IMG/VR virus record: IMGVR_UViG_3300031993_000016
Direction: 5' to 3' (one strand)
Length of the DNA: 64,000 nt
Source of the DNA: a virus
Taxonomy: Duplodnaviria; Caudoviricetes
Below, in pieces: positions 3,010 to 64,000 of this stretch. Made by a program: the position numbers and the translations under genes. Every line of letters begins with the position of its first letter. Within the stretch, counting starts at the first letter, position 1. Below the pieces are notes generated by a model. The model was not told the DNA's origin. It did no database searches and saw only the letters and a program-made list of their open reading frames with translations.

Positions 3010-3612
3010 TCATTCTTGTATATCTACTTCGTGCGCCATTCGTTTTAATTTAGCTGGTGTATAAGTTACTAAAACGGCACCATCAATATGTAGTTGAATT
3101 GTAGCTGAATAGAGCTTGCCCTCTTGTAGATAATTAGATGAAGTAGTTTGACGTTCTATATTTGTAGATGGATCAATTCTAACACCAAATCGAATCTTAC
3201 GCTTAGATTCATAAGGTATTTTAAATGTTATGAAATACTGACTTGTGTATTTAAATAATAATTCACGAATCAATTCATCAATATCTGCAGTATTTGTAGC
3301 CATACATACAAGATCATAATCTAGTTTAATTGGAAGTACTTTCTCATAGTATAATTCATTAGTTTTCTTGTCAAATACAGTGGCAACACCTTCATGTAAC
3401 CTAGTGTAGTTTAGTCGATCGTTATCAACAGGTGTATCGTCATGTCGGTTAACTGCAATCACAGGAAACTTGATTTTGTCTTCTTGTACCTGTGCTGCAA
3501 TAGTTAACACACTATCAGGTGATACTATATACACTGCAGGCTCTTGTCCAGGTTCTACTGCAAAAGATTGTCGTAAATCTGCAACTATTGCGTTATCGTA
3601 TGCCCAAAGCAT
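3010..3612 (-). CDS. Putative tail terminator/completion protein (gp15-like)
   Basis: Position between neck and sheath; KFPVIAVNR and PIKLDYDL...DELIRELL pattern. Confidence 0.5.
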   Translation of the reverse strand: MLWAYDNAIVADLRQSFAVEPGQEPAVYIVSPDSVLTIAAQVQEDKIKFPVIAVNRHDDTPVDNDRLNYTRLHEGVATVFDKKTNELYYEKVLPIKLDYDLVCMATNTADIDELIRELLFKYTSQYFITFKIPYESKRKIRFGVRIDPSTNIERQTTSSNYLQEGKLYSATIQLHIDGAVLVTYTPAKLKRMAHEVDIQE

Positions 3613-4226
3613 TAATTATCACCTCGCTTCTGTCCAGTGAAATTAGGATCTTGATCTTCTGCAGCTGTATGATAATTCCCTCGATAATCTACATTTGGTT
3701 TTAAGAAATTGTTAGATTTATCGAATTTCTTCTCAACTTCTTTCTTAGTATATCCTGTAGGTTGTTTCTCATCATATACAGGAATAACCTGAGCCACGAG
3801 GTGATCTGGTGCGGCAATATCATATGTAATTTCTGTAACACGAAACAATCTATCAGGTAATTCACTGTATTGACCAGATATTCTAAACAGACAATCCTTT
3901 TGCATATGTGGCAGATGAAAACTGCAATGAATTAAGAATGGGAGGTTCTGATCATTTTCAACTACCCAACCATATCGCTTAAATGTTTTCACTTTCGGAT
4001 TACCTTCAAAGAATATGTGAGTGTTGATATATTCTGAATAAGAATCTATTACAGTTTCACCTTGAGCATTGGGCTCAGGTTTAAGTGGATACTGATAGAT
4101 AGCTGATATACCTTGAAGCTGCAATGCTTCATCATACCTGTTTCGCATTAATTTTATGTCAGGACCGATAAGATTAACTGCCATCACTATCACCACTTTC
4201 AGCTGCATTTTGAGCAATGATATCAT
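3612..4226 (-). CDS. Putative neck/head-closure protein (probable start MAVNL at 4184)
   Basis: Synteny between portal and tail terminator; beta-rich, RLFRVTEI motif. Confidence 0.4.
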   Translation of the reverse strand: MISLLKMQLKVVIVMAVNLIGPDIKLMRNRYDEALQLQGISAIYQYPLKPEPNAQGETVIDSYSEYINTHIFFEGNPKVKTFKRYGWVVENDQNLPFLIHCSFHLPHMQKDCLFRISGQYSELPDRLFRVTEITYDIAAPDHLVAQVIPVYDEKQPTGYTKKEVEKKFDKSNNFLKPNVDYRGNYHTAAEDQDPNFTGQKRGDN

Positions 4227-8296: not shown

Positions 8297-10207
8297 TCAT
8301 CTTTTATATTTTGTATATGGGCCGGAAAACATTGACAAACCTTTGTATGCTGCATTCCGGTTATTAACAGATGCAATTGCAGAAGCTACATGACTTGGTT
8401 GCGGAGTTGGTTGTGAATGCTCAAGTGTGAGTGTGTAGCATGCTCCGCATACACAATCTGCTACGTCCTTTGACCCATTTGCAGGGTGATCTATTTTATT
8501 ATTTACACGTTGCAAGTGAATTAATTCGTTATCACGTAATTCATTAGCAACTAATTCTATACGTTGATCATATAATATGTTTTTCAAACCGATATATGGC
8601 TCTTCGGACCTATCAACTGAGATTTTAGCTGTTTTGAACCCTTGACCACTGAGTACTTCTCTCATATAACTAGACTGATACTGGTCAGTTGAAATTGTTC
8701 CTATGTTGAACCCGTTTCGTCGTAACCAAAGTATGAAATTAACTACTTTCTGAAAGGATAATCTATCCCCTGTCGGTCGTTGTATACCTACAGAAAATAT
8801 CTCTTTGAAGTATGGCATACTGATTTTTCTACCTTCAAAATCAGTCACTACCTTACTGCCGTCTACGCATACACCTGCCATACCTGTTCTGTCACCAGTT
8901 TCAGATAAGTCAAGATGTATATTTAGTAAACAACTTTTCAATCGACTAGGTACTGCTTCAAGATGAAAAAATTCTTCTATTGTATTTTTATCTTGAGTTC
9001 CTACTTCTATAACATCAGTATAAAACGGGTTATGCCGAGTATCTGTAATATTAGGGGTAATAGCTGCTTGCGTGATAAATCCCATAGCACCTATGATAGA
9101 AATACCTGCGACATCTCTTAAAGATATGTCATAATCTGCAAGAAATCGAGTTCGCAGATCTGCAGGAGCTTCGATAACTTGATAACCTTGACGAATGTAT
9201 TCTTGCCGATGTTCTTCGTCATCATTTTCTTCTGGTATAACAAACCCTTTCTTGTATCGATCTCCTACCGTAAAATGAAATACTTCTTTGCTGAATCGTT
9301 CTTTAGGTAATACCTTCCATTGAGGTTGATCTACTAAATAAAGATGAGAATTACCTGCATTCATCTGCGTTTCGATATGATCAGACAAGAAATCCGAATC
9401 TGTATTTTTTGACGAAGCTGCTACAATCTTTCCATAAACTTCTCCGTTCAAAGAAAACGTACCAGCAATACGTGCATTAATAGTGTCATATAAACTTTTC
9501 ATATGTTGCTTTGCTAACGATATGTCTTTTATACCAGATTTAGCAAAGTTGCATTCGTCAATAACGCAACAAAATGTAGTTTTTCCTAAGAAATTTGTTG
9601 CAGATGATCCAGCAACAATTTCTATATCGCCGCTATCTGGAACATATATCTGGTTTACAGTGCCTCGATTCATTGCACCATGATCCATGAACCAAGGTGA
9701 ATGTTTCATTGTTTGATTAAAATCTGCAAATGCTACCCCCTCAGCTAAATCTTTTGTAAGATTAGCAAATGCTATTGTCATCTTAGCAGTAGGCTGCAGA
9801 TGAAAATACTTTTGCGGCTGTCGATACAACATCAATTTATATAACATATATGCAACGATTTTGACAGCAGTTGCACTTTTGCCCAAACGCGTAGCTCCTG
9901 ACAAAATTATCTCATTATACTGATTGCCATGGTTGAATATATCTGTTAAAGTTTTTCGCCAAAACGGATAAACTTGTGCGCCATTATCAGTACTTTGACC
10001 TAAATAGTAAGGATCACTTATAAAACGGTCAATAGAAACTGGCACTTCTGTAAAATCCGCAAGCCATATATCTCGATATGTTTGAGATTCTCCATGTGTT
10101 GCAACTTCTTCAAGTATTTGGCGTAATATAACCTGTTCTGCAGGGGGTGAAGATGCATATATGCTTTGGATACGTTCAATTACATTTTCATCAATTAAAT
10201 CTGCCAT
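8297..10207 (-). CDS. terL: Terminase large subunit
   Basis: Walker A GATRLGKS, Walker B CCVIDE, nuclease HLDLS...DRTG, DQYQS, KIDHP...KDVAD. Confidence 0.92.
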   Translation of the reverse strand: MADLIDENVIERIQSIYASSPPAEQVILRQILEEVATHGESQTYRDIWLADFTEVPVSIDRFISDPYYLGQSTDNGAQVYPFWRKTLTDIFNHGNQYNEIILSGATRLGKSATAVKIVAYMLYKLMLYRQPQKYFHLQPTAKMTIAFANLTKDLAEGVAFADFNQTMKHSPWFMDHGAMNRGTVNQIYVPDSGDIEIVAGSSATNFLGKTTFCCVIDECNFAKSGIKDISLAKQHMKSLYDTINARIAGTFSLNGEVYGKIVAASSKNTDSDFLSDHIETQMNAGNSHLYLVDQPQWKVLPKERFSKEVFHFTVGDRYKKGFVIPEENDDEEHRQEYIRQGYQVIEAPADLRTRFLADYDISLRDVAGISIIGAMGFITQAAITPNITDTRHNPFYTDVIEVGTQDKNTIEEFFHLEAVPSRLKSCLLNIHLDLSETGDRTGMAGVCVDGSKVVTDFEGRKISMPYFKEIFSVGIQRPTGDRLSFQKVVNFILWLRRNGFNIGTISTDQYQSSYMREVLSGQGFKTAKISVDRSEEPYIGLKNILYDQRIELVANELRDNELIHLQRVNNKIDHPANGSKDVADCVCGACYTLTLEHSQPTPQPSHVASAIASVNNRNAAYKGLSMFSGPYTKYKR

Positions 10208-20498: not shown

Positions 20499-20519
20499 GC
20501 TATAACGATTTTAGCAAGT

Positions 20520-25039: not shown

Positions 25040-25651
25040 TTACTTGACATACTGTTGTCGATTATATTCAGGTAGTTCAGGTGTAACCGGTTCAACTGGA
25101 TTAACTGCTTCACCTGCTCTACGAGAATCCCATATCTTCTTAGACCCCATTATAAGTTCTTTAGAAAATGTTTGCTCATTCTCTACTCGAGTAATTACAG
25201 AAGTGTATGCTGCTAAAAGTATCTCATATTCGATTAAGCTTTCACTTATTTTATGAGATACATGTTCTTGTGTTTCTACTTTATTCATAGCTAGTGCAGC
25301 TGCTTCAGCAACAGCTTGAGTACGAATTGCCTCTACCTTCTCCTTGTTCTTGAGCTTCACAACTTGTGCATCAAGTCGAAGCTTATTTAAATTTTCAGCT
25401 ACACTTATGAGCTCCATAGGGAATAATGTAAGTATATATTCAAGTTCTTCATCAGTAATAGGCTGTATTTCAGATTTTAATCTAGTATACAAGTACTTAA
25501 CTTGAGTAAAGTGTTCAGCAAACAAGTTATCATATAGTTCATCACAGAAGTTTTTGATAACAGCGGAATCACTTTCGTATTCTTCAATTACTTTATATAG
25601 ATCAGACATATCAACTCTCCTTTTTAGGTACGCATAAATAAGTAATTGCAA
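25040..25651 (-). CDS. Hypothetical coiled-coil protein (possible recombination mediator)
   Basis: Helical protein between dnaX and recA; function inferred from synteny only. Confidence 0.45.
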   Translation of the reverse strand: MQLLIYAYLKRRVDMSDLYKVIEEYESDSAVIKNFCDELYDNLFAEHFTQVKYLYTRLKSEIQPITDEELEYILTLFPMELISVAENLNKLRLDAQVVKLKNKEKVEAIRTQAVAEAAALAMNKVETQEHVSHKISESLIEYEILLAAYTSVITRVENEQTFSKELIMGSKKIWDSRRAGEAVNPVEPVTPELPEYNRQQYVK

Positions 25652-27092
25652 TCTCTTGCAGATATTGAGTAGTCTTCAATTCAGCATTGAGTTTAAGTAA
25701 CTTATTAGCAAGCTTTAAGCATATCAAGCTGTGTTTAGGTCCATAAGGGGCAACCTTCTCTGCGTAATGTGCTGGTATCATAGTTGCTTCAATATCTTGC
25801 ATGAATATGTATTTCACTATGTTTATTACAAATGCGTGGAAGCCTTCAAACCACTTGACAAAATTAACCCCAGAATTGTAGACGGTATGGATTATTTTAG
25901 CAATCGCTTCATTATCGTGTTTGGCATATGCAGATAATAATGTAAAATAATCATCATATTGAGGTAAATTAAGTGCTTCTACTAATCCTTCTGAAGTTAT
26001 ATGTGTGCTGTATGCAAGTGCTTTATCTAAAAGTGTAAGGGCGTCACGCATACCACCATTTGCTAGCTTCGCAATGTAACTGATTGCAGAATCTTCATAA
26101 GTAATATCACGACCTTCTTTATTCTCGCAATCAATAACATATTTAAGTCGATTAATGATACCGTCTAGGCTGATCTTAGATAGCTGAAATGTTTGAACTC
26201 TTGAAGTGATTGTTGCAGGTATTTTTTCAGGATTTGTAGTAGCAAAAAGAAATATAGATTTAGCAGGGCTTTCTTCCAATACCTTCAAAGCAGACTGCCA
26301 TGCCGCAGATGATAGTGCATGCGATTCATCAATTATAAATATCTTATAATTCATACCAATTGGATATGTCTGTGCCTGCTCAACAATACTTCGCATCTTG
26401 TCTACACCGCTGTTTGACGCTGCATCAATTTCAATCGGCTCACCTTTACCTTCATTCAATACATTAGCAATTATACGACAAGTAGTTGTATTATGCGTCG
26501 GTATAAATCCATCAGAAACATAAGTATGATCAGGATGGTCGATGTAGATACACTGACAAGATTCGTTACCAACATATCTTATATCAACAATATGTCGTTG
26601 TTCTAAACACGAAGGAGCATCAAAATGCCACTTAGTTAAGTTTGCATTAGGTATAGTTATTGTGTGTCCGCGATCAAACTGAGCTATTAAGCAATCAGTA
26701 GTAATAACATGCTCTACACCATCAATGCAAACTAAATTTAAATGATTATCTGCAACTCGAATCACACACTCATCATGTAGCGTAATTGCATAAATGGGCC
26801 GTTCACCTTGCGGAAATACACCACTGACCTTGCCTGTATCGCCGGAATGCGTAATTACTTCTGTACCTATCTTTACATCTTGCATTTCAATGAACCCTGA
26901 CGGTGTAAGTACTTTACTATCTAGAGGCTGAGCTTTACCGGTCCCCGCAGGTCCAATAAATAAAAAGTTTCTACAATTAAGATTTTTATCTTCGCATAAC
27001 TTTCTAACCATGTTGACTACCAACTTCTGTTCTACCATATCATCGAAAGTTGCAGGACGATATTTGTTTGCTAAATTGCCTAGATTTGCCAT
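25611..27092 (-). CDS. dnaX: Clamp loader gamma/tau subunit, intein-containing
   Basis: LANKYRPATF, GPAGTGK[intein]TT, EIDAASNSGVD, IIDE, TITSR, GGMRDAL. Confidence 0.92.
   Translation of the reverse strand: MANLGNLANKYRPATFDDMVEQKLVVNMVRKLCEDKNLNCRNFLFIGPAGTGKAQPLDSKVLTPSGFIEMQDVKIGTEVITHSGDTGKVSGVFPQGERPIYAITLHDECVIRVADNHLNLVCIDGVEHVITTDCLIAQFDRGHTITIPNANLTKWHFDAPSCLEQRHIVDIRYVGNESCQCIYIDHPDHTYVSDGFIPTHNTTTCRIIANVLNEGKGEPIEIDAASNSGVDKMRSIVEQAQTYPIGMNYKIFIIDESHALSSAAWQSALKVLEESPAKSIFLFATTNPEKIPATITSRVQTFQLSKISLDGIINRLKYVIDCENKEGRDITYEDSAISYIAKLANGGMRDALTLLDKALAYSTHITSEGLVEALNLPQYDDYFTLLSAYAKHDNEAIAKIIHTVYNSGVNFVKWFEGFHAFVINIVKYIFMQDIEATMIPAHYAEKVAPYGPKHSLICLKLANKLLKLNAELKTTQYLQEIAITYLCVPKKES
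26490..26933 (-). mobile_element. Ala1 mini-intein (148 aa) in DnaX Walker A
   Basis: Begins AQPLDSKVLTP, ends CQCIYID...FIPTHN/T; no endonuclease domain. Confidence 0.88.
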
Positions 27093-29055: not shown

Positions 29056-32000
29056 CTATAACGATTCTCCATAGATTACTTTATGTTCTATATGCTCAAT
29101 AAACTGAATATCTGATTCAATGTGATAGCGTCGTTTATAGTCTTCAATAGCTGCAAAATACTCATCACTTTCAATACCATTAACACCTAATGCTGCATCA
29201 CCCCTAGGCTTCTCACCATTTTCATCTTTATATACAGGCAATATGTATTCATTCTCGTACAGCTGATATTGAACCCATTTAATCTCTTCTGGACTTAAAT
29301 TTTCTAGAGATTCAGGTTTTGGATATTTACAAGGATATTCTAATCCATACCATCTAAGTGTTGTTGTTACGTCGCACGTCATGTTAAATGGCAAGAAAGA
29401 AGCAGCTTCAATCATACATCTACTTAGTATCTCTCCACCTTCTTTCCAATGTTCTATAGGAACTTCACAGCATAACTCATCGTGAATTGGTGTAAGCAAA
29501 CGCCCCCCAATACGTAACCAATCAGGGTCGTTACATAAGTTTAGTATGGCAAGTTTTGACATATCAGCTGCACTGCCCTGGATAATCGAATTCAATATCT
29601 GTCTAGTAGCGTCTTGTATTTTAGATCGATTGTTAATAACTTTAATATGTTCGCCATCATGTAATTGCTTCATTCTATTAGCAACTTGACCAAAGTACTT
29701 GTATCCTTTAAACTCCTTTAATAAGGATGCTTTTATTCTTTCAGGTATGTCTGATTTGTTTTTGAGTGTTTCTGGATCTAACGGATCTATATCAGGGTTT
29801 ACATATCCTGCAAGCGGTTTGAATTCGTATTCCGGCAATTGCATATCCGGAAGATGACGACGTCTGCCAAGTATTGTTTCCGTATATCCATGAGTTACTA
29901 CAAATTTTTGAGATGCTAACATTATTTTACGAAGACCTGGAAATGCATTCATAACAGAATCATATACTTTTTGAGCACCTTTGATCTTCTCTTCATCTGT
30001 CATATCATCTCTAGAATTATATAACTGTTCTGCAATTGACGGGATTGCACGCCCGTATGAAATTCCAAGCAAAATTGTTTTAGCTTCACCCCTTCGTGCC
30101 TTACCATCCGGTTGATATTCATGAGTATCTGGATGAAATTCGAGACATTTTTCATAAGGTACGTTAAATGCAAGGCTTGCAATACTTGCGTATATATCAC
30201 GATTCTGGATAAAAGAATCAAGCATACCTTTATCCCCTGACACAAATGCAGTTATTGCAGGTTCCTGTCGACTATAATCTGATGACAGCATAACATATCC
30301 AGGTGTTGCTCTAAACATATGTCGTATATCATGAGCATTAGATGGAATATTCATTACGTTCGGTTCACTCGAACTAAGACGACCTGTATTATGTGATATC
30401 ATACCATTACTTATGAAAGAATGAGTTTCCGGTACAACAAAATCATAAACATCATTAACAGAATGTTCAATCTTCTTGACCTTAACATAGAATGAATCAC
30501 CTACACGGCGATGCCAGTATTGATTTTTTACGCAAGGCTTTGTATCCTTTATCTTCTTAGTTTCTATAAAACCTATATGATCTCTAAAAAGCAGATAATT
30601 ATCTGCATTGAATACTAAGCAAAGAAACATATCCGTAACACCTTTAACATTATAAGAAATGTGCGAATATATACCTTGTGATATGAGATACTGCTGTACA
30701 AACCTAGCATCCTGTTCATTCAAAATAGACAATTCAAATGCTACACGCTCATTTTCATCTACATACACAGTTGAATCTAAGGTCATACCTTTGATGTATG
30801 CATTGATTACTGAAGACGGAGATTTATATATAGCATCAGGTATTTTTTTGTTTCTTGTACCGTGACATAATATGTGATCAAGATCTCGTAGTTGCATACA
30901 ATCTATGTAAGTTTCTACTTCGTGATTTTCACGTTGTTTTGCACATTGACATGTAGTAACATTAAATAAAGATTTTGCTAACTCGCTGTATCTAGTATAT
31001 ACATCAGGATCATCATTGGATAATGCTATAGTATATGTACCTTCTCTGCAAGCTGCGGAACCATCCGCATGATACATACCTAAAAATTCTGCAAATTCTT
31101 CATTAAAAATATCCGGTAACTGAGCTTCAACAGAAGTGTGGTTTCTTACAGCTGTTAGAACTAAGTTTGTCTGTTGGTAGGATCCAGTAACTTTAAAATT
31201 GCATGGAATTTCGATAAGATCATTAATCTTTAACTCGTCTAACTGTTTAAATCTTCGATCTTCCCATAGCGAATGCAATCTAGGATATTCACCTTTATAA
31301 TTATACATCAAATAAGATGAACGCTCACTTGCAGTGTATTTACTAACCATAATTGGGTGATTAGGTGTACCTTCTAAAACTAAGCCAAGTTCTGTAGTAA
31401 CTTTAATTGTAGATACATTATGATAGCACACGCAGTGCGATGCACTCTCTAAAGACTGATCTTTATTTATTATTTGTATGCCATGCACTTCTGCAAACTC
31501 ACCATCTGGTAAATCTATAACATTAGACTTATTTGTTAACTCTTCTATAGTATAGTATCCAGAATCGGTAGGTATAAGAGAATCCCCTGTAATGCAAGCT
31601 GCCCCAACGGAAGAGAATCTAGCATGAATTCGACTATCAGCTGTAGTTGCATTTGGCATCTTCTCTACAAATGTACTTATCAATACACCTAAACTTCGCA
31701 CTTTAAGTATCTGATTTGTGATTGGAAGATTCATCTCAGCTAATACAGTTTTATCTGTACTACCACCATTTTTACCTTGTGGTAAATTCATAACTGTATA
31801 TAAAAGATACTTAACGTGTGGGGGAGATTTTGGATTGAAAGTTGATCCGCTTGTAAACGGCTTTTTAGAAAATGCGGGAATTGTTGTAGATTTTGCTAAT
31901 TCATCATCTACCATAGCAGATAATATGTCCATTTCTGCTGCACGCTTCTTAGTGTAACGCTCAAGTAAAACCGGTGTGGTAGTCTTATCTACATACATGC

Positions 32001-32850
32001 CTAATCTGTGCATATTCTGACATACAGAAATGAGAGGAAATTCAACATTCCAAACAAGATCTGCAATCTTTTCAAGATGCGCTTTTTTGCATTTAGGGTG
32101 ATCTTTAGTTACATAAGGAAGTTGCCATTTGAATAAATCATAAGTAATTTTAGCATCGTTAGCTGCATATAATTTAGCTACTTCTGGTTTACAATATGGA
32201 AACATCTGAGGTGTAAAGAAATCGCTGAATTTCTTTGGATCACCGGCGCCCTTTAATACATACTTATTATAAAGACCTTTCAGTGTATTATCTAATTCGT
32301 TCTCCTTAAGGCATCTCCATGCAAGGATCACGTCATAGTAACATCTATCATTGAAATCTACTTTGAGGTCTTTGTATATCATAGCTAAGTCGAAATCTGC
32401 GTTTGCAAAAATCAACTTAATATTAGAATCTGCAAGTCGTTGGAACTCTATAGTGACGTCCTCATAAGATAATTGATTCTTATAAGGTTCGTCAAATATA
32501 GGTACAAGATGTTTCATCGGTATATAACATTCTACACCACCTGGGTAGTATAATGATGCACCTACAATAGTATCATGAATTCTGTCAAGGCCTGTAGTCT
32601 CTGTATCAATACCCGCATAGCCTGATTCTATAGCTTCATCAATATACTCGTGCAATTGATCTCGGCTTTCAATGAGAATAGCAAGGGAATCTTGGAAATA
32701 ATCTAGCACAGCTTGTGACATTTCATTTAGATCTGCGGTGATATTCTTACGTGTGGTTGACTTAGTAGGTGTATTAAGCTCTTTACTCTTTGCAGCTATT
32801 TGATTAATTTGTTCTAGTTGAGATTTGCTAAATAATCCCAAATATACCAC
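29056..32850 (-). CDS. polA: Family A DNA polymerase with 3'-5' exonuclease, intein-containing
   Basis: IDTETTG, TGRLSS, SDYSRQE, R..AKTILLGISYG, NSIIQGSAAD, IHDE. Confidence 0.95.
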   Translation of the reverse strand: MVYLGLFSKSQLEQINQIAAKSKELNTPTKSTTRKNITADLNEMSQAVLDYFQDSLAILIESRDQLHEYIDEAIESGYAGIDTETTGLDRIHDTIVGASLYYPGGVECYIPMKHLVPIFDEPYKNQLSYEDVTIEFQRLADSNIKLIFANADFDLAMIYKDLKVDFNDRCYYDVILAWRCLKENELDNTLKGLYNKYVLKGAGDPKKFSDFFTPQMFPYCKPEVAKLYAANDAKITYDLFKWQLPYVTKDHPKCKKAHLEKIADLVWNVEFPLISVCQNMHRLGMYVDKTTTPVLLERYTKKRAAEMDILSAMVDDELAKSTTIPAFSKKPFTSGSTFNPKSPPHVKYLLYTVMNLPQGKNGGSTDKTVLAEMNLPITNQILKVRSLGVLISTFVEKMPNATTADSRIHARFSSVGAACITGDSLIPTDSGYYTIEELTNKSNVIDLPDGEFAEVHGIQIINKDQSLESASHCVCYHNVSTIKVTTELGLVLEGTPNHPIMVSKYTASERSSYLMYNYKGEYPRLHSLWEDRRFKQLDELKINDLIEIPCNFKVTGSYQQTNLVLTAVRNHTSVEAQLPDIFNEEFAEFLGMYHADGSAACREGTYTIALSNDDPDVYTRYSELAKSLFNVTTCQCAKQRENHEVETYIDCMQLRDLDHILCHGTRNKKIPDAIYKSPSSVINAYIKGMTLDSTVYVDENERVAFELSILNEQDARFVQQYLISQGIYSHISYNVKGVTDMFLCLVFNADNYLLFRDHIGFIETKKIKDTKPCVKNQYWHRRVGDSFYVKVKKIEHSVNDVYDFVVPETHSFISNGMISHNTGRLSSSEPNVMNIPSNAHDIRHMFRATPGYVMLSSDYSRQEPAITAFVSGDKGMLDSFIQNRDIYASIASLAFNVPYEKCLEFHPDTHEYQPDGKARRGEAKTILLGISYGRAIPSIAEQLYNSRDDMTDEEKIKGAQKVYDSVMNAFPGLRKIMLASQKFVVTHGYTETILGRRRHLPDMQLPEYEFKPLAGYVNPDIDPLDPETLKNKSDIPERIKASLLKEFKGYKYFGQVANRMKQLHDGEHIKVINNRSKIQDATRQILNSIIQGSAADMSKLAILNLCNDPDWLRIGGRLLTPIHDELCCEVPIEHWKEGGEILSRCMIEAASFLPFNMTCDVTTTLRWYGLEYPCKYPKPESLENLSPEEIKWVQYQLYENEYILPVYKDENGEKPRGDAALGVNGIESDEYFAAIEDYKRRYHIESDIQFIEHIEHKVIYGESL
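30388..31596 (-). mobile_element. Intein (403 aa) with LAGLIDADG endonuclease in polA
   Basis: CITGDS start, TPNHP, FLGMYHADG, YIKGMTLDS, VYDFVV...NGMISHN/T. Confidence 0.92.
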
Positions 32851-37393: not shown

Positions 37394-38260
37394 TCAATCT
37401 CTCCCTTCTATTAATTCGAACTGTAATCCTTTAACATCTACACCTTCACTAGCAGACCGCTTGATAGTGCTACTATCTAAATTATATCGAAGTGCAGCTT
37501 CGGCTAAACTTCGATATTCAGTACCGTCAGTGACGCACCTTACAGGTATCCCACATATCTGTTTTGAAAGTTCTCCGCAAACTTTTGGATTTCTCAAACC
37601 TAATTCTATTGAATGTTGAAGGTTCTCTATGTTAGTGACCCATTCTAGATTTTCAACATTGTTGTTGATCTTATTCCCGTCTCTGTGATTAACCTGAGGC
37701 AAATTTCCTGGATTTGGTATGAAAGCTGATGCTACTAATCTATGTACGCTACACAATTTTGATTCACCTCTCACTGACAGCATACAATGTTCATATCCGT
37801 CAGCACCTACATGAAGCTTTAGCTCATGCACATCTCTAAACACAACTCCGCCGTTGTAACTAACTAAGCGGCCGACACTTCGTATCTTGCCATACCTACT
37901 CGCCTGATAGCTGCCTTCATAGCCTGGTATAGATTTCCAAATCTCATCATCCACAACTTCTGGAGATACTATAGAAAGATTACTCACTGCATCGGAATTA
38001 CCAGATAGATGAAATACTGGTGTATCGGGCGTATATCCTTCTAGAAATGCTTCTGCTACAAGCTTACTTACACGAATTGTAGACACGTTACCGTCTTTGG
38101 ACAAGTACACTTGACCCCGATATGGCTTCAGTACATTTTGACCTATGCGCCTCACTTCTCCTAAAGAGCTGACCTCATACAGACCTTCATAACCTTTGAC
38201 AGATCTCCATCTGCATTCGCCAGTAGATGCACTTTCAGGAATGTTGAAAAGCTTTCGCAT
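37394..38260 (-). CDS. Tandem NUMOD4-HNH homing endonuclease
   Basis: Two NUMOD4 modules; VHRLVA..FIPNP..LPQVNHRDGNK.NN..ENLEW. Confidence 0.88.
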   Translation of the reverse strand: MRKLFNIPESASTGECRWRSVKGYEGLYEVSSLGEVRRIGQNVLKPYRGQVYLSKDGNVSTIRVSKLVAEAFLEGYTPDTPVFHLSGNSDAVSNLSIVSPEVVDDEIWKSIPGYEGSYQASRYGKIRSVGRLVSYNGGVVFRDVHELKLHVGADGYEHCMLSVRGESKLCSVHRLVASAFIPNPGNLPQVNHRDGNKINNNVENLEWVTNIENLQHSIELGLRNPKVCGELSKQICGIPVRCVTDGTEYRSLAEAALRYNLDSSTIKRSASEGVDVKGLQFELIEGRD

Positions 38261-41453: not shown

Positions 41454-42371
41454 TTACACCTCCCATCCTAATGTAGTAAATATTTCAGGGTGATTAGCAT
41501 AGTCCTGATAGTTATCAAGTAACACAGGATTTAACGAATTGCACAGATTGTAGATGCTATACTGATCAAGATAGAGATCTTGTTTGTTATCTGTGCATAA
41601 TTTGTCTAAACCTTTGTCTAATAAGATATCCCACAGCACTACTGCATCTAGCGTCATATCTTGTGGACTATGATTCTTGCAGAATTGATACACCGGATAA
41701 GGTACTACATATTTGTTCTTAGCATCAGTAGTCGCAAGCGAATCAATCCAATTTTGAAACTCAAACTCAAATGATGCTACACTGTTATCGTGGATCGCTT
41801 TACCATACATGACCACCACACCTTGCACCCATTCTGGAAACTTTCGCATACTATACTTGAACGTGCTACCTGTGATAGTTTTATGAAATCTAGTTTCAAA
41901 CCAAGTCCACAATAGACTTGCACATCTCTGTGCATATATAGGACCTGATTTTGATGCGGCAGGTAACTGAGCTAAACATTCAGTATAGTTTGCAAACACT
42001 TTGCGTCGTAGATTGATTGAAAGTGCTGTTTGAGACGCTGTAGTTTCGGATGCTTGAAGTAATGCAGACGTTTCGGATCTTTGTGACTCTGCAGACCCTC
42101 TAGTGAAATCTTGTACTTTAGTTATCTGATACTCCATGTCATCTAATACATCAGATATAGTTGATGAACTTTCCCCGAATTCATCGCTATCATCTTTTAG
42201 TATCTCTTCCTGCAATATATCAGATATGAGTGCAACAACTTGATTACAGTTATCTGCAATTTCTCTCAACCTATCACGAGACTTAGTATAGAGCTTAGAC
42301 TCATTTGAAGATACTTCTTCAACATATGCAAGTAATTTTTCAACACTCTTTTTGGCACTATGAACATCCAC
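41454..42371 (-). CDS. Hypothetical protein (possible initiator, adjacent to putative origin)
   Basis: 305 aa, AGGAGG RBS, first gene of the replication operon. Confidence 0.6.
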   Translation of the reverse strand: MDVHSAKKSVEKLLAYVEEVSSNESKLYTKSRDRLREIADNCNQVVALISDILQEEILKDDSDEFGESSSTISDVLDDMEYQITKVQDFTRGSAESQRSETSALLQASETTASQTALSINLRRKVFANYTECLAQLPAASKSGPIYAQRCASLLWTWFETRFHKTITGSTFKYSMRKFPEWVQGVVVMYGKAIHDNSVASFEFEFQNWIDSLATTDAKNKYVVPYPVYQFCKNHSPQDMTLDAVVLWDILLDKGLDKLCTDNKQDLYLDQYSIYNLCNSLNPVLLDNYQDYANHPEIFTTLGWEV

Positions 42372-42439
42372 TGTTCTGTACCTCCTAACTAAGCAACTGG
42401 AACAATTAGTTCCGCATAACCTATAACGAATTTAGTACA

Positions 42440-42700
42440 ACAAAACGGGTGCGGCGTTAGAATGTGAGATTGTCCTCTTTCCACAGCTAGTGACTCACGA
42501 CGTAGTGTCTAGAACACTACCGGCTACTATAAAACTGGAACTGTGCGGAGGCGACAGGTGCGGCCGCCGTCTCCACCAGACAATCTCACATTCTAACGCC
42601 GCACCCGCTAGAAGTAATTTCTACGTGGACATGATAAACAGCAAGAATAAGTAAATGACAGATGATATCATGACCGAAATCTATTCTATTTAACCCTACA
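42440..42700 (-). ncRNA. Candidate structured ncRNA closed by a 29-bp perfect stem
   Basis: Inverted repeat 42446-42474/42579-42607, internal hairpins, TTTTG after the stem on the minus strand, upstream sigma-A promoter. Confidence 0.6.
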
Positions 42701-42705
42701 CCAAT

Positions 42706-42734
42706 AGTATATTATAACTTGACCAAGAAGTCAA
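42706..42734 (-). promoter_or_regulatory. Sigma-A promoter TTGACT-N17-TATACT
   Basis: Direct read; no RBS-supported ORF between it and the 29-bp stem. Confidence 0.7.
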
Positions 42735-42864: not shown

Positions 42865-43165
42865 ATTTTTTAGTGAGGCGAACGAAGTGAGCTAGCGAGC
42901 TTTGCGAGCTATTTTTTAGTGAGGTTTGGAGGGCGCTTGCGAGCCACTACTGTGTGGCGAGCTTAATTAATATTAATTAATATTATTATTATTAAATTAA
43001 TATTAAAAGAATTAATATTATTAATATTGCGGCCTTAGATTTTTGGAGTAAAACGGGAAATATTCTGTATCACTTTTGCAACTTTTTGTCACTTTTTCTA
43101 CATCACTTTTGCAATTTTCTACCTAATTTTATATAAGTACTTTTGATATTAATCACTCACTTTAT
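42865..43165. other. Putative replication origin
   Basis: ATTTTTTAGTGAGG x2, GCGAGC x4, 66-nt tract with a single G (42963-43028), TCACTTTT x4; beside helicase/primase operon. Confidence 0.55.
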
Positions 43166-43412
43166 TAAACTTAAAAATTCCGGAGAAAATAAGTGTAAAA
43201 TATCAAATTGATATTATAAAATTTAACATAAATTATCAAAAGTTATTTAGAAAATCTAGCAGAACTTATCAGATTTTCACATGTAAAATCATCCGTTTTG
43301 CATCTTGAATTCAAGTATCAAATTTGCTATAATACATGTACATATTCTATATGAAATCATAAAATCGTTATAGAAAATACGCATAATTGTGTAGTATAAC
43401 ATGTAGGTTAGA

Positions 43413-44024
43413 TTGAATAATTCAAAGGAGGTCAATGATATGAATGAAACTTGGAAACACATTGATGGATTACCACTAGGATATGAAATATCCGATGCAG
43501 GTAACATAAGAGAGAATTATGGTGATCATTATGAAATAATGAGATTGTCTAAATCGGGCAAGTATTTGACGTTTTGTATACGAGGTAAACAGTTGTTAGT
43601 ACATAGACTAGTTGCTGATGCATTCTTGCCTAAACCAAACATACAGATAGGTAGGTGGGTAATACTACACTTAGATGGAGACACGCATAATAATGCAGTA
43701 ACTAATTTGCAGTGGATCAATGCTGTAGATCTATATTTTACAAAGGCTCATAATGAATGTATTATAAGATGTATAGAAGATCAGCTCACATTCAATTCAA
43801 TACAGACTGCAAGTGCATTTTATGGTATTCCTACATATACTTTGACAGCATGTATAGATGCAGATACAAGCATATGCGGATTACATTTTCAGCGTATGCC
43901 GTCTATAGAAGTTAAGGACTGCGATATTATAGCATCCGGATCGCAAATCACACACATCTTAGCAAATATGTCATATGTCGATCTTGCAGAACTGCAAACA
44001 GCGATGAAACAGTTGAACAAATAA
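43413..44024 (+). CDS. NUMOD4-HNH endonuclease (probable start 43440)
   Basis: ETWKHI...YEISDAG, VHRLVA.AF, HLDGD.HNN..NLQW; AAGGAGG RBS. Confidence 0.8.
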   Translation: MNNSKEVNDMNETWKHIDGLPLGYEISDAGNIRENYGDHYEIMRLSKSGKYLTFCIRGKQLLVHRLVADAFLPKPNIQIGRWVILHLDGDTHNNAVTNLQWINAVDLYFTKAHNECIIRCIEDQLTFNSIQTASAFYGIPTYTLTACIDADTSICGLHFQRMPSIEVKDCDIIASGSQITHILANMSYVDLAELQTAMKQLNK

Positions 44025-46731: not shown

Positions 46732-47349
46732 ATGCGAGCAAAAGAAGCATTAGAACTTTTACAAGTTCATCGTGTTACTCTTAATAGATATGTACGTGAA
46801 GGCGTTATTAGAGTAACAAAATTATCAAATGGTAGATATGAATATAATGATGAAGATGTGCTTAGATTCATAGGTAAGAAGCAAAAAACACATAGTACTA
46901 AAGTAATTTCATATTCAAGAGTATCTACACAATCACAAAAATCACAATTAAAAGAACAAACACAAAGAATTTATGATAGTTGTACTTCAAGAGGTCTTAC
47001 CTTAGATGAACAATATGAAGATATCGGTTCTGGTATGTCATCTGACAGAAAAAACTTTAATAAAATCTGCCAAATGATATTTCACGGTGATGTTGAATTG
47101 TTAATTATTGAAAATAAAGACCGTCTTGTTCGTTTTGGTTTCGATATGCTTGAAAAGTTTTTTAGTTATTTTGGTTGTAAGATACTTGTTTTAAATGACT
47201 CAATAGAAAATAAATCTTATGAACAAGAACTTACAGATGACCTTATATCTGTTATTCATTATTTTACAATGAAATCCTATTCACACAGGCGTAAATTAAA
47301 TAAACTAAGAAGGGAACTAGAGAATGAAACAAAATCTAATAACTCTTAA
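46732..47349 (+). CDS. tnpA: IS607 serine-recombinase transposase
   Basis: N-terminal MerR-like HTH, YSRVST, DIGSG, KDRLVRFGF, ELTDDL. Confidence 0.92.
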   Translation: MRAKEALELLQVHRVTLNRYVREGVIRVTKLSNGRYEYNDEDVLRFIGKKQKTHSTKVISYSRVSTQSQKSQLKEQTQRIYDSCTSRGLTLDEQYEDIGSGMSSDRKNFNKICQMIFHGDVELLIIENKDRLVRFGFDMLEKFFSYFGCKILVLNDSIENKSYEQELTDDLISVIHYFTMKSYSHRRKLNKLRRELENETKSNNS

Positions 47350-48700
47350 AATTAAATATTCTTGTAATACTTCAATTTTAGATGTTATTAGACAGTATAA
47401 TTCTGTACTTAAATTCACTTATAATCGATTAGTAGAGAATTCAAAATTAAAAACTTCTGAAATTACGCAGTTACAGAAAAATCTTAATAATTGTGATTTA
47501 ATAGGGTCTCATTTAAGAAATTCAGCTATATATGATGCAAAATCTTTAGTAGAGCATTCTGATAAACATATTATTTTTGGTGGTAAGTGTCTTTTTAAGC
47601 AAAGATGTCAGCATAAAATAGATAAAGATGAATTTTTGCTTAAACGATTAAGACCAATAAATTCAATAGGTGAAGCAAATCAGAAAGCAAATCGCCTATT
47701 TGATATAGTAAACAATCAAACTATTATGTTTAAGTTGAATAGGCAGCAACACTTTGAATTAAAATTACAACAAGTAGGCACTAAAAGACTCAAAGAACTC
47801 AATAGGCTAATAGAACTGCAAAATAACAAACAAGTTGCAATAACTTATAAATTAGATTTGGATTATGTTTATCTTATTTTTGATTATAACTCATTAAAAA
47901 CTTATGATTATAAAGTTAAATTTAATAGAGTTATGGCAATAGATTTAAATCCAAATAGTATAGGTTGGTCAATTGTTGACTGGTTTGCTGAAAATAAATA
48001 CACTATGATTCAGTCAGGTACTTTTAGTCTTAAACCACTTAATGATTATAGAAATTCTAAATCAGTTGCATCTGATAGTAATTTTCATAAATACATAACA
48101 AATAAGCGTAACTATGAAATTATACATATTGCTAAAGACTTATTTACCTTATGTAGGCATTATCATTGTGAGATATTTTCTATTGAAGACTTAAATATAA
48201 AAGCTTCTGATAAGAAATTAGGTCGTGATTTTAATAGATTAGTAAATAATAATTGGAATAGAAATCTTTTAGTTAACCAAATAAAGAAACATATAAATTC
48301 AAGTTCTACTACTTTAGTAGAAGTACAGCCACAATACAATTCTTATATAGGTAATCTTGTTTTTAGACAAGAACATTTACCAGATGAATGTTTAGCCTCT
48401 ATTGAGATAGGTAGGCGAGGATTTGAATTTGCAACACAGTATATTTTTAGTAGACGATCGCATCAAAAGACAGTTATTTATCCAAAACTAGAGTTAGTTA
48501 AAAATCAACTTACCTTATCGTTGGAAGAATTAGGTATCGATATTCCTAACTTAGAATCTTGGAAAAATATTTTGTCTGCGGTCAAAGAATCGAAAGTGAA
48601 ATATCGGTTCTCTACTTCTGAAGCACAGATTTATCATTCAGAAGGTCTTTTTAGTAAGTTTTATAAATATAAATACTTAAAAATTTATGTATATTTATAA
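47324..48700 (+). CDS. tnpB: TnpB RNA-guided nuclease (Zn-finger-less type)
   Basis: RuvC-I AIDLN, RuvC-II IEDL, then VQPQYNSYIG...PDECLASIEIGRRG without CxxC pairs. Confidence 0.85.
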   Translation: MKQNLITLKIKYSCNTSILDVIRQYNSVLKFTYNRLVENSKLKTSEITQLQKNLNNCDLIGSHLRNSAIYDAKSLVEHSDKHIIFGGKCLFKQRCQHKIDKDEFLLKRLRPINSIGEANQKANRLFDIVNNQTIMFKLNRQQHFELKLQQVGTKRLKELNRLIELQNNKQVAITYKLDLDYVYLIFDYNSLKTYDYKVKFNRVMAIDLNPNSIGWSIVDWFAENKYTMIQSGTFSLKPLNDYRNSKSVASDSNFHKYITNKRNYEIIHIAKDLFTLCRHYHCEIFSIEDLNIKASDKKLGRDFNRLVNNNWNRNLLVNQIKKHINSSSTTLVEVQPQYNSYIGNLVFRQEHLPDECLASIEIGRRGFEFATQYIFSRRSHQKTVIYPKLELVKNQLTLSLEELGIDIPNLESWKNILSAVKESKVKYRFSTSEAQIYHSEGLFSKFYKYKYLKIYVYL

Positions 48701-48751
48701 AAATTTATAAAACTTATATTTTAGCTTACCTGCTTACTATAACGATTTGTG

Positions 48752-51536: not shown

Positions 51537-51589
51537 TAAAAAAAATAGTAGGCGAAGCATTCATTTACTTCACCTACTATAACGATTTT
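51537..51589 (-). terminator. Terminator with overlapping AAATCGTTATAG motif
   Basis: ATAGTAGGTGAAG...CTTCGCCTACTAT then T8. Confidence 0.75.
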
Positions 51590-56198: not shown

Positions 56199-56219
56199 CT
56201 ATAACGATTTCTTTCTTGT

Positions 56220-63187: not shown

Positions 63188-64000
63188 TTATACCTCCGCT
63201 TCGCTGTTCAGAAGATCATCAAGGTTGTATATTGTTGCAGGGTCTGCAAGAGAAATGTTACCCTTCTTAGCCCTTACCACGTTCCAGGTGTCCTTAAGTC
63301 TATTTTTAAGCATTGTAACACCAGTCTCATCACCGTTGATAACATAGTCAATAGTCCAACTATCGATAACTTTCACTAGATACTGTGCAGGTGTTTCCTT
63401 TAATACTTGTATATAAGCAAATTTACCAGAAACTGGACTAGTATTCCAATTGTATATCTTTATGATATTACGAGTACCAATAAGCTCTTCTAATTCAGCT
63501 TCCTGTAACTGTGCTCGCCAATCTTCGCCCTTTGGTGCGGCTTCATCTAATTTATAATCTGAATATTTCGGCATATCAACTTTTATAATTGTGTTCCAAT
63601 TAACTTCGTTGAGAAACTCAAGTGCGTCAACTGTCTGTCTGAGCGATTTCATTTGATCAACTGTTGTAGCTTTAAGACCTGACCAAGAAGAAGATTTACG
63701 AGTAACTTCCCCGTTGCTATCTAATCCAATATCATATGACCAACTAAGTGCACTAGAATCTTCAAATTTGCTATGCTCATTACATCTGATATATACTTCT
63801 GCGAATTCGTATTCTTTATCGCCCTTACCCCAATTATAACCTCTACGAACATCGATGTCAAAATCAAGTGCATCAAATTGTCTAAGCTGGCTCTCTAAAA
63901 ACTTCTGTATAGGGTCAAGCACTTTACGTTCAGCTTCTCTTAATGCAGATTGGTGTTCTTTATATCTAGCATCATAAGCAGCTTTATCCGCATCATACTG
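63188..64000 (-). CDS. Hypothetical protein, 5' end outside window
   Basis: Frame stays open from 63922 to the window edge. Confidence 0.6.
   Translation of the reverse strand, partial: QYDADKAAYDARYKEHQSALREAERKVLDPIQKFLESQLRQFDALDFDIDVRRGYNWGKGDKEYEFAEVYIRCNEHSKFEDSSALSWSYDIGLDSNGEVTRKSSSWSGLKATTVDQMKSLRQTVDALEFLNEVNWNTIIKVDMPKYSDYKLDEAAPKGEDWRAQLQEAELEELIGTRNIIKIYNWNTSPVSGKFAYIQVLKETPAQYLVKVIDSWTIDYVINGDETGVTMLKNRLKDTWNVVRAKKGNISLADPATIYNLDDLLNSEAEV

Follow-up and report, generated by a model that had tools for sequence, protein, structure and literature searches.

What function is served by a perfect 29-bp inverted repeat that stands ahead of the replication genes of an uncultured tailed phage? 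The repeat lies between positions 42440 and 42734 of a 64,000-nucleotide stretch of DNA (hereafter the window) from the IMG/VR record IMGVR_UViG_3300031993_000016 (Duplodnaviria; Caudoviricetes), whose source was a bovine gut metagenome. The gene set encoded in the window (tail sheath, portal, terminase, family-A polymerase, clamp loader, UvsX-like recombinase, primase and DnaB-like helicase) identifies it as a segment of a large tailed phage, and according to the open reading frame (ORF) table the minus strand carries nearly all of the genes between 42371 and approximately 500. A model that read the letters without database searches (the sequence-only reading) had proposed a stand-alone early RNA of about 250 nucleotides (nt) adjoining a putative origin, with a DNA cruciform and an invertible segment as alternatives. 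Our analysis points to a conserved, structured leader RNA of the replication operon, and we hold with middling confidence that it acts in cis as a conditional terminator gating early read-through into the replication genes.

The two arms of the repeat (42446-42474 and 42579-42607) are 29 nt each, 100% complementary and enclose 104 nt, as had been described. The 29-mer is unique in the 64-kb window even with 3 mismatches allowed (shuffled sequences expect 0), and the exact 24-mer of the arm was missing from the viral and genome contig collections. On the gene (minus) strand, terminal G-U pairs lengthen the helix to 32 pairs, and the fold has an energy of -96 kcal/mol (z = -9.1 against dinucleotide shuffles). 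The contrast between a GC-rich element and AT-rich surroundings was also confirmed: the GC content is 0.54 over the element, 0.46-0.49 in 200-nt windows and about 0.35 in the neighbouring DNA.

Read in the direction of the genes, the predicted RNA begins with a 5' extension of about 90 nt from the start site to the stem (42610..42699, minus strand, as for all the following parts), longer than in most relatives. The closing stem, P1, was defined by arm analysis, fold and covariation; its 5' strand spans 42578..42609 (core 42607..42579) and has at its base the segment alpha, GGUGCGGC (42605..42598), for which both the P1 3' strand and the loop of the P2 hairpin are potential partners. The fold closed by P1 measures about 170 nt. 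P2 (42545..42576), found in the fold, carries the apical loop CCGCAC (42563..42558; 8-mer GCCGCACC, 42564..42557), complementary to alpha. The junction CACAGUUCCA..UUUUA and the third branch, P3, occupy 42484..42544 and are supported by conserved letters and covariation; P3 encloses P4, the hairpin GUAGUGU/ACACUAC (42502..42520) with the self-complementary tip UCUAGA (42508-42513). The conserved purine-rich junction GGAAAGAG (42476..42483; consensus GGAGAGAGG) comes immediately 5' of the P1 3' strand (42444..42475, core 42474..42446), followed by the U-rich tail UUUUGUUGU (42437..42445), which abuts the GC-rich P1 base as a terminator-like 3' end and corresponds to the TTTTG noted earlier behind the stem. 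Two of the three inner hairpins proposed by the sequence-only reading (GGAG.CGGCGG/CUGUCG.CUCC and GUAGUGU/ACACUAC) are present as such in the predicted fold; for the third, CACAG/CUGUG, the fold has a slightly different closing helix of the third branch. Inside the 5' extension there is also a 16-codon hydrophobic ORF, MISSVIYLFLLFIMST (42625-42675, minus strand), whose stop lies about 15 nt before the stem; since it has no Shine-Dalgarno sequence and is missing in the relatives, it is probably not translated.

Relatives of the locus were found by scanning with alignments of the family of a 402-amino-acid (aa) protein encoded by the second ORF of the replication module (alignment A3 on the viral and genome collections, the smaller A2 on the metagenome collection). 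About 55 loci were recovered, with 33-55% protein identity across full-length matches, and all of the comparisons given here rest on them. The ORF upstream of the 402-aa match is homologous to the first ORF of the module in the window, which encodes 305 aa (42371..41454, minus strand), has a GTG start at 42371 served by the ribosome-binding site (RBS) AGGAGG (42386..42381; whole feature 42369..42386, minus strand) and keeps its N-terminus MD(I/V)xSA in the relatives. In the window the gap between the hairpin element and this ORF is 73 nt. About 30 of the 41 loci with sufficient upstream DNA carry at the equivalent place, 25-85 nt ahead of the orthologous ORF, a near-perfect stem of 22-40 bp enclosing 50-173 nt. 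The 20 distinct versions that were compared all have an almost bulge-free stem (22-40 bp, median 27). Several of them share letters with the window: the stem base GAGUGCGGCGUUGA, the junction CUGGUG and the hairpin loop GCCGCAC, together with CACAGUUCCA..UUUA, CCGA-hairpin-GUCNNGA and GCUGGGAGAGAGG followed by the 3' strand; the conserved junction letters are CUGGUG, CACAGUUCC and GGAGAGAGG. A covariance model built on seven sequences sharing these letters found the element once at each locus and nowhere else in the window; the window scored 148 bits on the gene strand and 40 bits on the opposite strand.

The sequence-only reading had called for an Rfam comparison and a covariation search in related phages; the former returned no family and the latter revealed conservation with compensatory changes. 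Rfam 15 had no match to the element in the window at E values up to 5, nor in 11 related loci at E up to 1, and full-text literature searches retrieved no description of this RNA. A motif pattern scan of viral contigs returned the known contigs and three chance matches in coding DNA, rejected by the RNA model. The element region had no blastn match among 50,697 phage records; a 151-nt contig from a second bovine-gut study, probably a single read, is identical to 42443-42593. The replication modules of these uncultured phages of rumen and gut, a large clade, are headed by an uncatalogued conserved structured RNA.

Some relatives deserve separate mention. At locus L046 (2452-2671) the closing stem reaches 40 bp and the U-rich tail continues directly into the RBS GGAGGAGG; the start first predicted there for the downstream ORF lay within the RNA. 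L078 (a contig of the Ruminococcus flavefaciens 007c assembly) and L075 (an IMG/VR contig) match at 3501-4058 and encode just residues 211-397 of the 402-aa protein, at 51% identity, which hints at a host and at a gene that may be split or interrupted in these contigs. As hosts, L076 and L078 suggest Ruminococcus and other Clostridia.

The variation between versions indicates that the element folds as RNA. In the 10 sequences aligned to the P1-P4 model, 98.1% of the cells are paired, a figure that falls to 31-47% if the partners are displaced by 1-3 columns. Of the 32 model pairs, 25, mostly in the stem, are altered on both sides (4 of 4 in P3), and the covariation score is 0.742 versus 0.278 in shuffles, none of 500 reaching 0.742. 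This alignment was fitted to the model, a bias in the model's favour; in the raw MAFFT alignment, 18 of the 32 pairs were compensated already. The strand was assessed with the stem defined strand-symmetrically, every non-Watson-Crick pair being penalised equally: internal stem mismatches read on the gene strand comprised 31 G·U and 7 A·C (p = 1e-4), with a G·U excess in 16 instances and an A·C excess in 1, indicating RNA of the gene strand and not a cruciform or paired protein half-sites. The cruciform alternative is therefore disfavoured. Formally, a hairpin of single-stranded DNA of the same strand would fit this bias too.

The proposed promoter, TTGACT-N17-TATACT, is present and directed into the element (42706..42734, minus strand, -35 at 42734), placing a putative transcription start near 42699. 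The match by itself is not above chance, the window containing 23 matches at 10/12 compared to 19.6 in shuffles, so the case for the promoter rests on its conservation: 16 of the 20 versions have a promoter with a score of 9.5/12 or better whose end lies 7-50 nt ahead of the stem, and two of these promoters are a perfect TTGACA-17-TATAAT. Promoter and stem are 97 nt apart in the window, and 84 nt apart in L050. On the other side of the stem, at least 5 of 8 letters are T in 17 of the 20 versions and at least 6 in 10 of them (background for at least 5, estimated by hand, approximately 0.05-0.1), and in the window the GC-rich base ...CGCCGCACCCG followed by UUUUGUUGU has the stem base and U-tract of an intrinsic terminator. 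The earlier proposal of an RNA of about 250 nt hence finds support in the relatives as regards its minus strand, its host-type promoter, its end at a stem with a U-rich tail and a product of about 260 nt. The epithet stand-alone does not hold as written, the element being part of the replication-operon leader, 73 nt ahead of the first ORF. The roles of primer, RNAP decoy or defence decoy suggested in that reading are conjectural.

Whether the replication genes depend on transcription through the stem was judged from what lies behind it. A motif here called M, AAATCGTTATAG, occurs 10 times in the window (0.65 expected), apparently oriented with the neighbouring genes according to the ORF table, and probably serves as promoter for a transcription factor or polymerase encoded by the phage. 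One copy, AATTCGTTATAG (42421..42432, minus strand), is a candidate phage-type promoter between the stem and the first ORF, and an M-like TCGTTATA lies 3' of the stem in 10 of the 20 versions. Versions lacking M have, where the start codon could be located, 24-45 nt to it, RBS included. Five of these (L033, L046, L032, L068 and L057) combine a strong U-rich tail with only 24-42 nt, including the RBS, to the start where located; there is no room for a second promoter, and expression of their replication genes appears to require read-through. Three others without M (L028, L036 and L076) have some of the weaker U tails, 5 T of 8. Further sites of M include 20500-20511, 43362-43373, 48737-48748, 51577-51588 and 56199-56210; at two places the motif ends 2-4 nt before a predicted start codon, which makes either those starts or the role of the motif doubtful.

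The P2 loop is a candidate competitor for the base of the stem. Its letters in the window, GCCGCACC (42564..42557), are perfectly complementary to alpha, GGUGCGGC (42605..42598), and in 11 of 19 versions the longest interior complement to the 5' strand is precisely the P2 apical loop, although its letters differ between lineages (GCCGCACC, CCUCACU, GCUACGACC, CCUGCAA, CCCGCAA, CGGCAU). In an alignment not fitted to this pairing, 89.9% of the loop-to-stem cells are paired, compared to 22-50% when slid, and 4 of the 7 pairs are altered on both sides, with a score that none of 500 shuffles attains. Complementarity and covariation together indicate that the stem base has two partners. In L046 the loop complements the 5' strand at 9 of 9 positions, better than the stem's own 3' strand does there, and in folds of the nascent RNA lacking the 3' strand the loop pairing is within the minimum-energy structure in 3 of 8 cases. 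A small 5' hairpin displaying alpha in a 7-nt loop (84% paired versus 26-56% slid, two compensated pairs) is weakly to moderately supported. No target of the P2 loop was found on the relevant strand outside the element, the 8-mer complement occurring on that strand within the element only.

These observations suggest the following sequence of events, in which termination, gating by the alternative pairing, its trigger and early timing are inferred. Early in infection, host RNA polymerase would start at the sigma-70-type promoter, and the first approximately 260 nt would fold into the closing stem P1 (29-32 bp) and a three-way junction with P2 and the P4-enclosing P3. The GC-rich P1 base and UUUUGUUGU would then act as an intrinsic terminator, so that many early transcripts would stop there and leave a compact, stable RNA, about 260 nt long in this phage and about 150-220 nt long in the relatives. 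Before the P1 3' strand is synthesised, the base of the 5' strand, GGUGCGGC, could pair with the P2 loop GCCGCACC; if this pairing held, the P1 base would stay open beside the U-tract and the polymerase would go on to transcribe the 305-aa and 402-aa ORFs, the helicase and primase genes and those beyond. The competition between loop and stem would thus set the amount of read-through into the replication genes, with a later takeover, in this phage, by the phage-specific motif M downstream of the stem. The trigger of the switch would be a protein, a ligand, the speed of the polymerase or the accumulated RNA itself, and the terminated product may also act in trans. If the gating is real, it would amount to a new attenuator design: the terminator stem would double as the helix that closes a folded domain, with one of the domain's own hairpin loops as competitor for that stem. 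It would also offer a handle on the timing of DNA replication in these phages.

Several points weigh against this conditional terminator. The sample is small (20 versions, some closely related), canonical terminators do not have a 29-bp stem with a branched insert of 102 nt, the compact short-loop hairpin of intrinsic terminators is lacking and the terminator scan did not call the stem. Once the upper part of P1 has formed, a loop pairing of 7-8 bp should be easily displaced, so the gate may need an additional factor. Gating requires 8-12 bp only, which leaves the long near-perfect stem unexplained, and it accounts neither for the conserved junction letters nor for the self-complementary P4 loop; stem length, junction letters and P4 tip therefore suggest an added or different role (a trans-acting RNA, an RNase III target, a protein- or ligand-binding fold, a dimer). 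Finally, the phage-type promoter motif 3' of the stem means that in the window the RNA could be purely stand-alone. As for a ligand, the alternative pairing and conserved junction letters recall riboswitches; to our knowledge, a P1 of 29 bp is far more stable than any known ligand-controlled helix.

The P4 tip needs an account of its own. The words at the aligned place include UCUAGA, AUCUAGAU, CCUAGG, CCGCGG, CCCGGG, GGCGCC and CAUAUG; the tip is self-complementary in 9 of the 10 type-A sequences, with six different words, and the chance of a self-complementary four-letter tip is 1/16. A hairpin needs no such tip, which suggests that it mediates loop-loop dimerisation; self-complementary tips could also be a by-product of the manner in which palindromes originate. 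The phi29 packaging RNA (pRNA) and the HIV-1 dimerisation hairpin are RNAs that join through loops. With them the element shares a long helix in which the 5' and 3' ends pair, a three-way junction and a tip self-complementarity that is kept while the letters change; there is no sequence likeness, and a multimer is conjectural here. Since large terminase subunit, portal and tail sheath are all encoded by this phage, a packaging RNA of the phi29 pRNA type is not expected. Avoidance of restriction sites in the P4 loop was considered and discarded, TCTAGA not being rare in the window (25 versus 21 expected). Three independent covariation signals (the stem, the loop against the stem strand, and the self-complementary loop) make the RNA directly testable by simple mutants.

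The rival that survives best, possible though on balance unlikely, is a stable, stand-alone non-coding RNA of the early phase with a function in trans, be it as a regulator, a protein decoy or a scaffold. P1 and the U-tail would provide termination and end protection, and the P2 and P4 loops would serve as contact sites for dimerisation or for kissing nascent leaders, in the manner of the CI RNA of phage P4. The closest relatives, L070 and L023, fit it well, having a -10 that ends 9-20 nt before P1, so that the RNA would barely exceed structure and U-tail. Wherever a phage-type promoter motif follows the stem (the window and 9 other versions), read-through would be dispensable; the conservation of CUGGUG, CACAGUUCC and GGAGAGAGG is as for a specific three-dimensional fold, the P4 tips would find their use, and the weakly supported 5' hairpin with alpha in its 7-nt loop, facing the P2 loop, recalls the kissing geometry of antisense RNAs. 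What speaks against it is that in at least five lineages the element immediately precedes the RBS, with no other promoter, and is part of the mRNA, that no target of the P2 loop was found outside the element on the relevant strand, and that the self-complementary tips could be a by-product of palindrome formation.

The conditional terminator and a trans-acting product could be combined in an RNA-only timer of replication, which we consider rather unlikely. End-protected RNA would build up from the strong early promoter, and its P2 loop, perhaps also its P4 loop, would kiss the unpaired 5'-strand base of nascent leaders, blocking closure of the terminator, so that read-through into the replication genes would begin only past a threshold of accumulated RNA. 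If true, the terminator stem would itself house a self-targeting, same-strand RNA switch, possibly working as a homodimer.

Known leader systems offer parallels. Closest in logic are two immunity RNAs derived from leaders: the CI RNA of satellite phage P4, with seqA, seqB and seqC, and the c4 RNA of phages P1 and P7, whose operon carries an anti-repressor gene. The P4 CI RNA pairs with sites in the same transcript, leading to premature termination before the phage replication genes (PMC4825925). Like these, the element is an untranslated leader ahead of phage replication (there, replication or anti-repressor) genes and has a hairpin-borne sequence complementary to a same-strand site of its own transcript, loop and target co-varying between related phages. 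Premature termination, the means of control in P4 (PMC4825925), is predicted here. Differences are that the element has no sequence or Rfam similarity to these RNAs, that its target is one strand of its own 29-bp closing stem instead of a free site, and that the present phage looks like a lytic myovirus of 140-250 kb with Firmicutes-type hosts, not like a temperate element; a processed, stable, trans-acting RNA is a trait of P4 CI and c4 and is conjectural for the element. Gram-positive attenuators provide a second comparison, comprising terminator/antiterminator leaders and the countertranscript-driven attenuation of the pT181 and pIP501 rep genes. They also combine a leader before replication genes with a stem, a U-tract and an internal competitor for the 5' half of the terminator. 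Here, by contrast, the terminator stem is 22-40 bp with a three-way junction of about 100 nt inside, the competitor is a hairpin loop of 6-8 nt downstream of the strand it binds, and no antisense promoter was noticed on reading the opposite strand around the stem or found in the promoter scan. Judged by sequence and Rfam comparisons, the element is unrelated to the known systems and differs from them in design, its target being its own closing stem.

Distinctly unlikely, in our opinion, is that the element is in essence a processing site at which a cut by the host RNase III parts the leader from the replication mRNA and thereby sets the stability or translation of the latter. RNase III requires about two turns of double-stranded RNA, and phages use it in early leaders; the cleaved leader hairpins of the lambda N leader and of the T7 early RNAs are examples. 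All 20 versions provide about two or more near-continuous turns, with a nearly bulge-free helix of 22-40 bp that exceeds the needs of a terminator or a junction, and the element lies in the 5' leader just ahead of the RBS, as the long helices of lambda N and T7 do. Natural sites are usually imperfect helices; this one is near-perfect, closes a conserved branched domain, has a U-tract on its 3' side and carries in its lower part a covarying alternative partner, and processing alone leaves the P2-loop covariation, the U-rich tail and the conserved junction unexplained. Cleavage by RNase III is plausible, and compatible with the other readings too, including the conditional terminator.

A role at the DNA level, as a hairpin, cruciform or set of initiator sites in a replication origin with incidental transcription, appears very improbable. 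The sequence-only reading placed the element next to a putative origin, and the DNA to its right does contain AT-rich palindromes and short direct repeats; in L001-type relatives the adjoining DNA is rich in iterons. The GC skew has no origin-type switch at the element, so that this part of the claim gains no support. The octamer GGTGCGGC, three copies of which occur within 160 bp at the element and would supply the initiator sites, is over-represented (5 in the window versus 0.23 expected), and one relative, L070, carries a DnaA-box-like TTATCCACC. Against these stand the 31 G·U to 7 A·C bias, which favours folding of one strand, the third octamer copy, which always lies in the loop of a hairpin on a covarying stem, the missing skew switch, and the promoter consistently directed into the element. 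A DnaA box at the element was rejected, the resemblance in L070 not being conserved across the alignment. The two octamer copies outside the element (3808-3815 and 63534-63541, plus strand) lie inside minus-strand ORFs, where the mRNA would have the sense of the P2 loop, and may be due to chance. The repeat-rich DNA itself, at 42960-43030 and 43063-43128 between divergent promoters, comprises very AT-rich nested palindromes and two 33-nt direct repeats (ATCACTTTTGCAA core); the corresponding stretch of L001-type relatives contains many TTTCAAATTGAAAGAAAATG-like repeats. In the window this DNA looks origin-like, without support from the GC skew. Many unrelated short contigs stack at 42960-43030 owing to its low complexity.

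A mobile or rearranging element, either a miniature inverted-repeat transposable element (MITE) with 29-bp terminal inverted repeats or an invertible segment, would account for perfect repeats around a short, GC-richer insert 4 kb from an IS607-type element, and is scarcely credible: the element is a single copy whose arm sequence is missing from the viral and genome collections, has no evident flanking direct repeat (AAAA on one side, CTAG on the other) and keeps the same gene position in relatives of 35-55% protein identity, diverging along with them, which argues against a MITE, while its interior has a constant orientation relative to the promoter in every model-alignable lineage (12 of the 20 versions) and, as weak evidence, a single orientation with no joint at the repeat in the source-sample contig, which argues against inversion, the nearest recombinase being that of the IS607-type element.

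Three known RNA classes were also considered and rejected: a hammerhead-like reading of CUGGUG...GAAAG (order of the elements judged wrong, no Rfam match); 6S RNA, a rod with a large central bubble, where the structure found here is a perfect stem with a three-way junction (no Rfam 6S match); and the msr-msd RNA of retrons (no Pfam or PHROG match to a reverse transcriptase in the flanking ORFs).

The module led by the element continues after the 305-aa ORF with the 402-aa ORF, a 206-aa ORF and the helicase. Neither the 305-aa nor the 402-aa ORF had matches in Pfam or PHROG. Among the 50,697 phage records no protein similar to the 402-aa ORF was found, and the helicase had only distant relatives (below 30% identity); a large protein database contained 679 homologues of the 402-aa protein, the closest at 60-70% identity. 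The AlphaFold models of both proteins are confident (mean predicted local distance difference test, pLDDT, 77 for the 305-aa and 80 for the 402-aa protein) and have no recognisable fold: Foldseek returned nothing from the PDB at E up to 0.001, and VIA-align gave generic helical matches only (best Z 4.6 and 9.7, respectively).

Other genes of the window include two homing-endonuclease-like genes of the HNH/NUMOD4 type, one directly opposite the RNA across the divergent promoter region (43413-44024, plus strand) and one between the helicase and the primase (37394-38260, minus strand). The IS607-type gene pair (46732-48700, plus strand; GC just 0.28) consists of a 205-aa transposase with a MerR-type helix-turn-helix and a serine-resolvase domain (PHROG 6620, E = 8.5e-47) and an overlapping 458-aa ORF at the position expected for TnpB, with no Pfam or PHROG match. 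The family-A polymerase (1264 aa, 29056-32850), the clamp-loader subunit (493 aa, 25611-27092) and the terminase-like ORF (636 aa, 8297-10207), all on the minus strand, each contain a short segment matching PHROGs of unrelated proteins: those of the terminase and, for the clamp loader, primase and DnaC families as well. The segments may be inteins or a common inserted domain.

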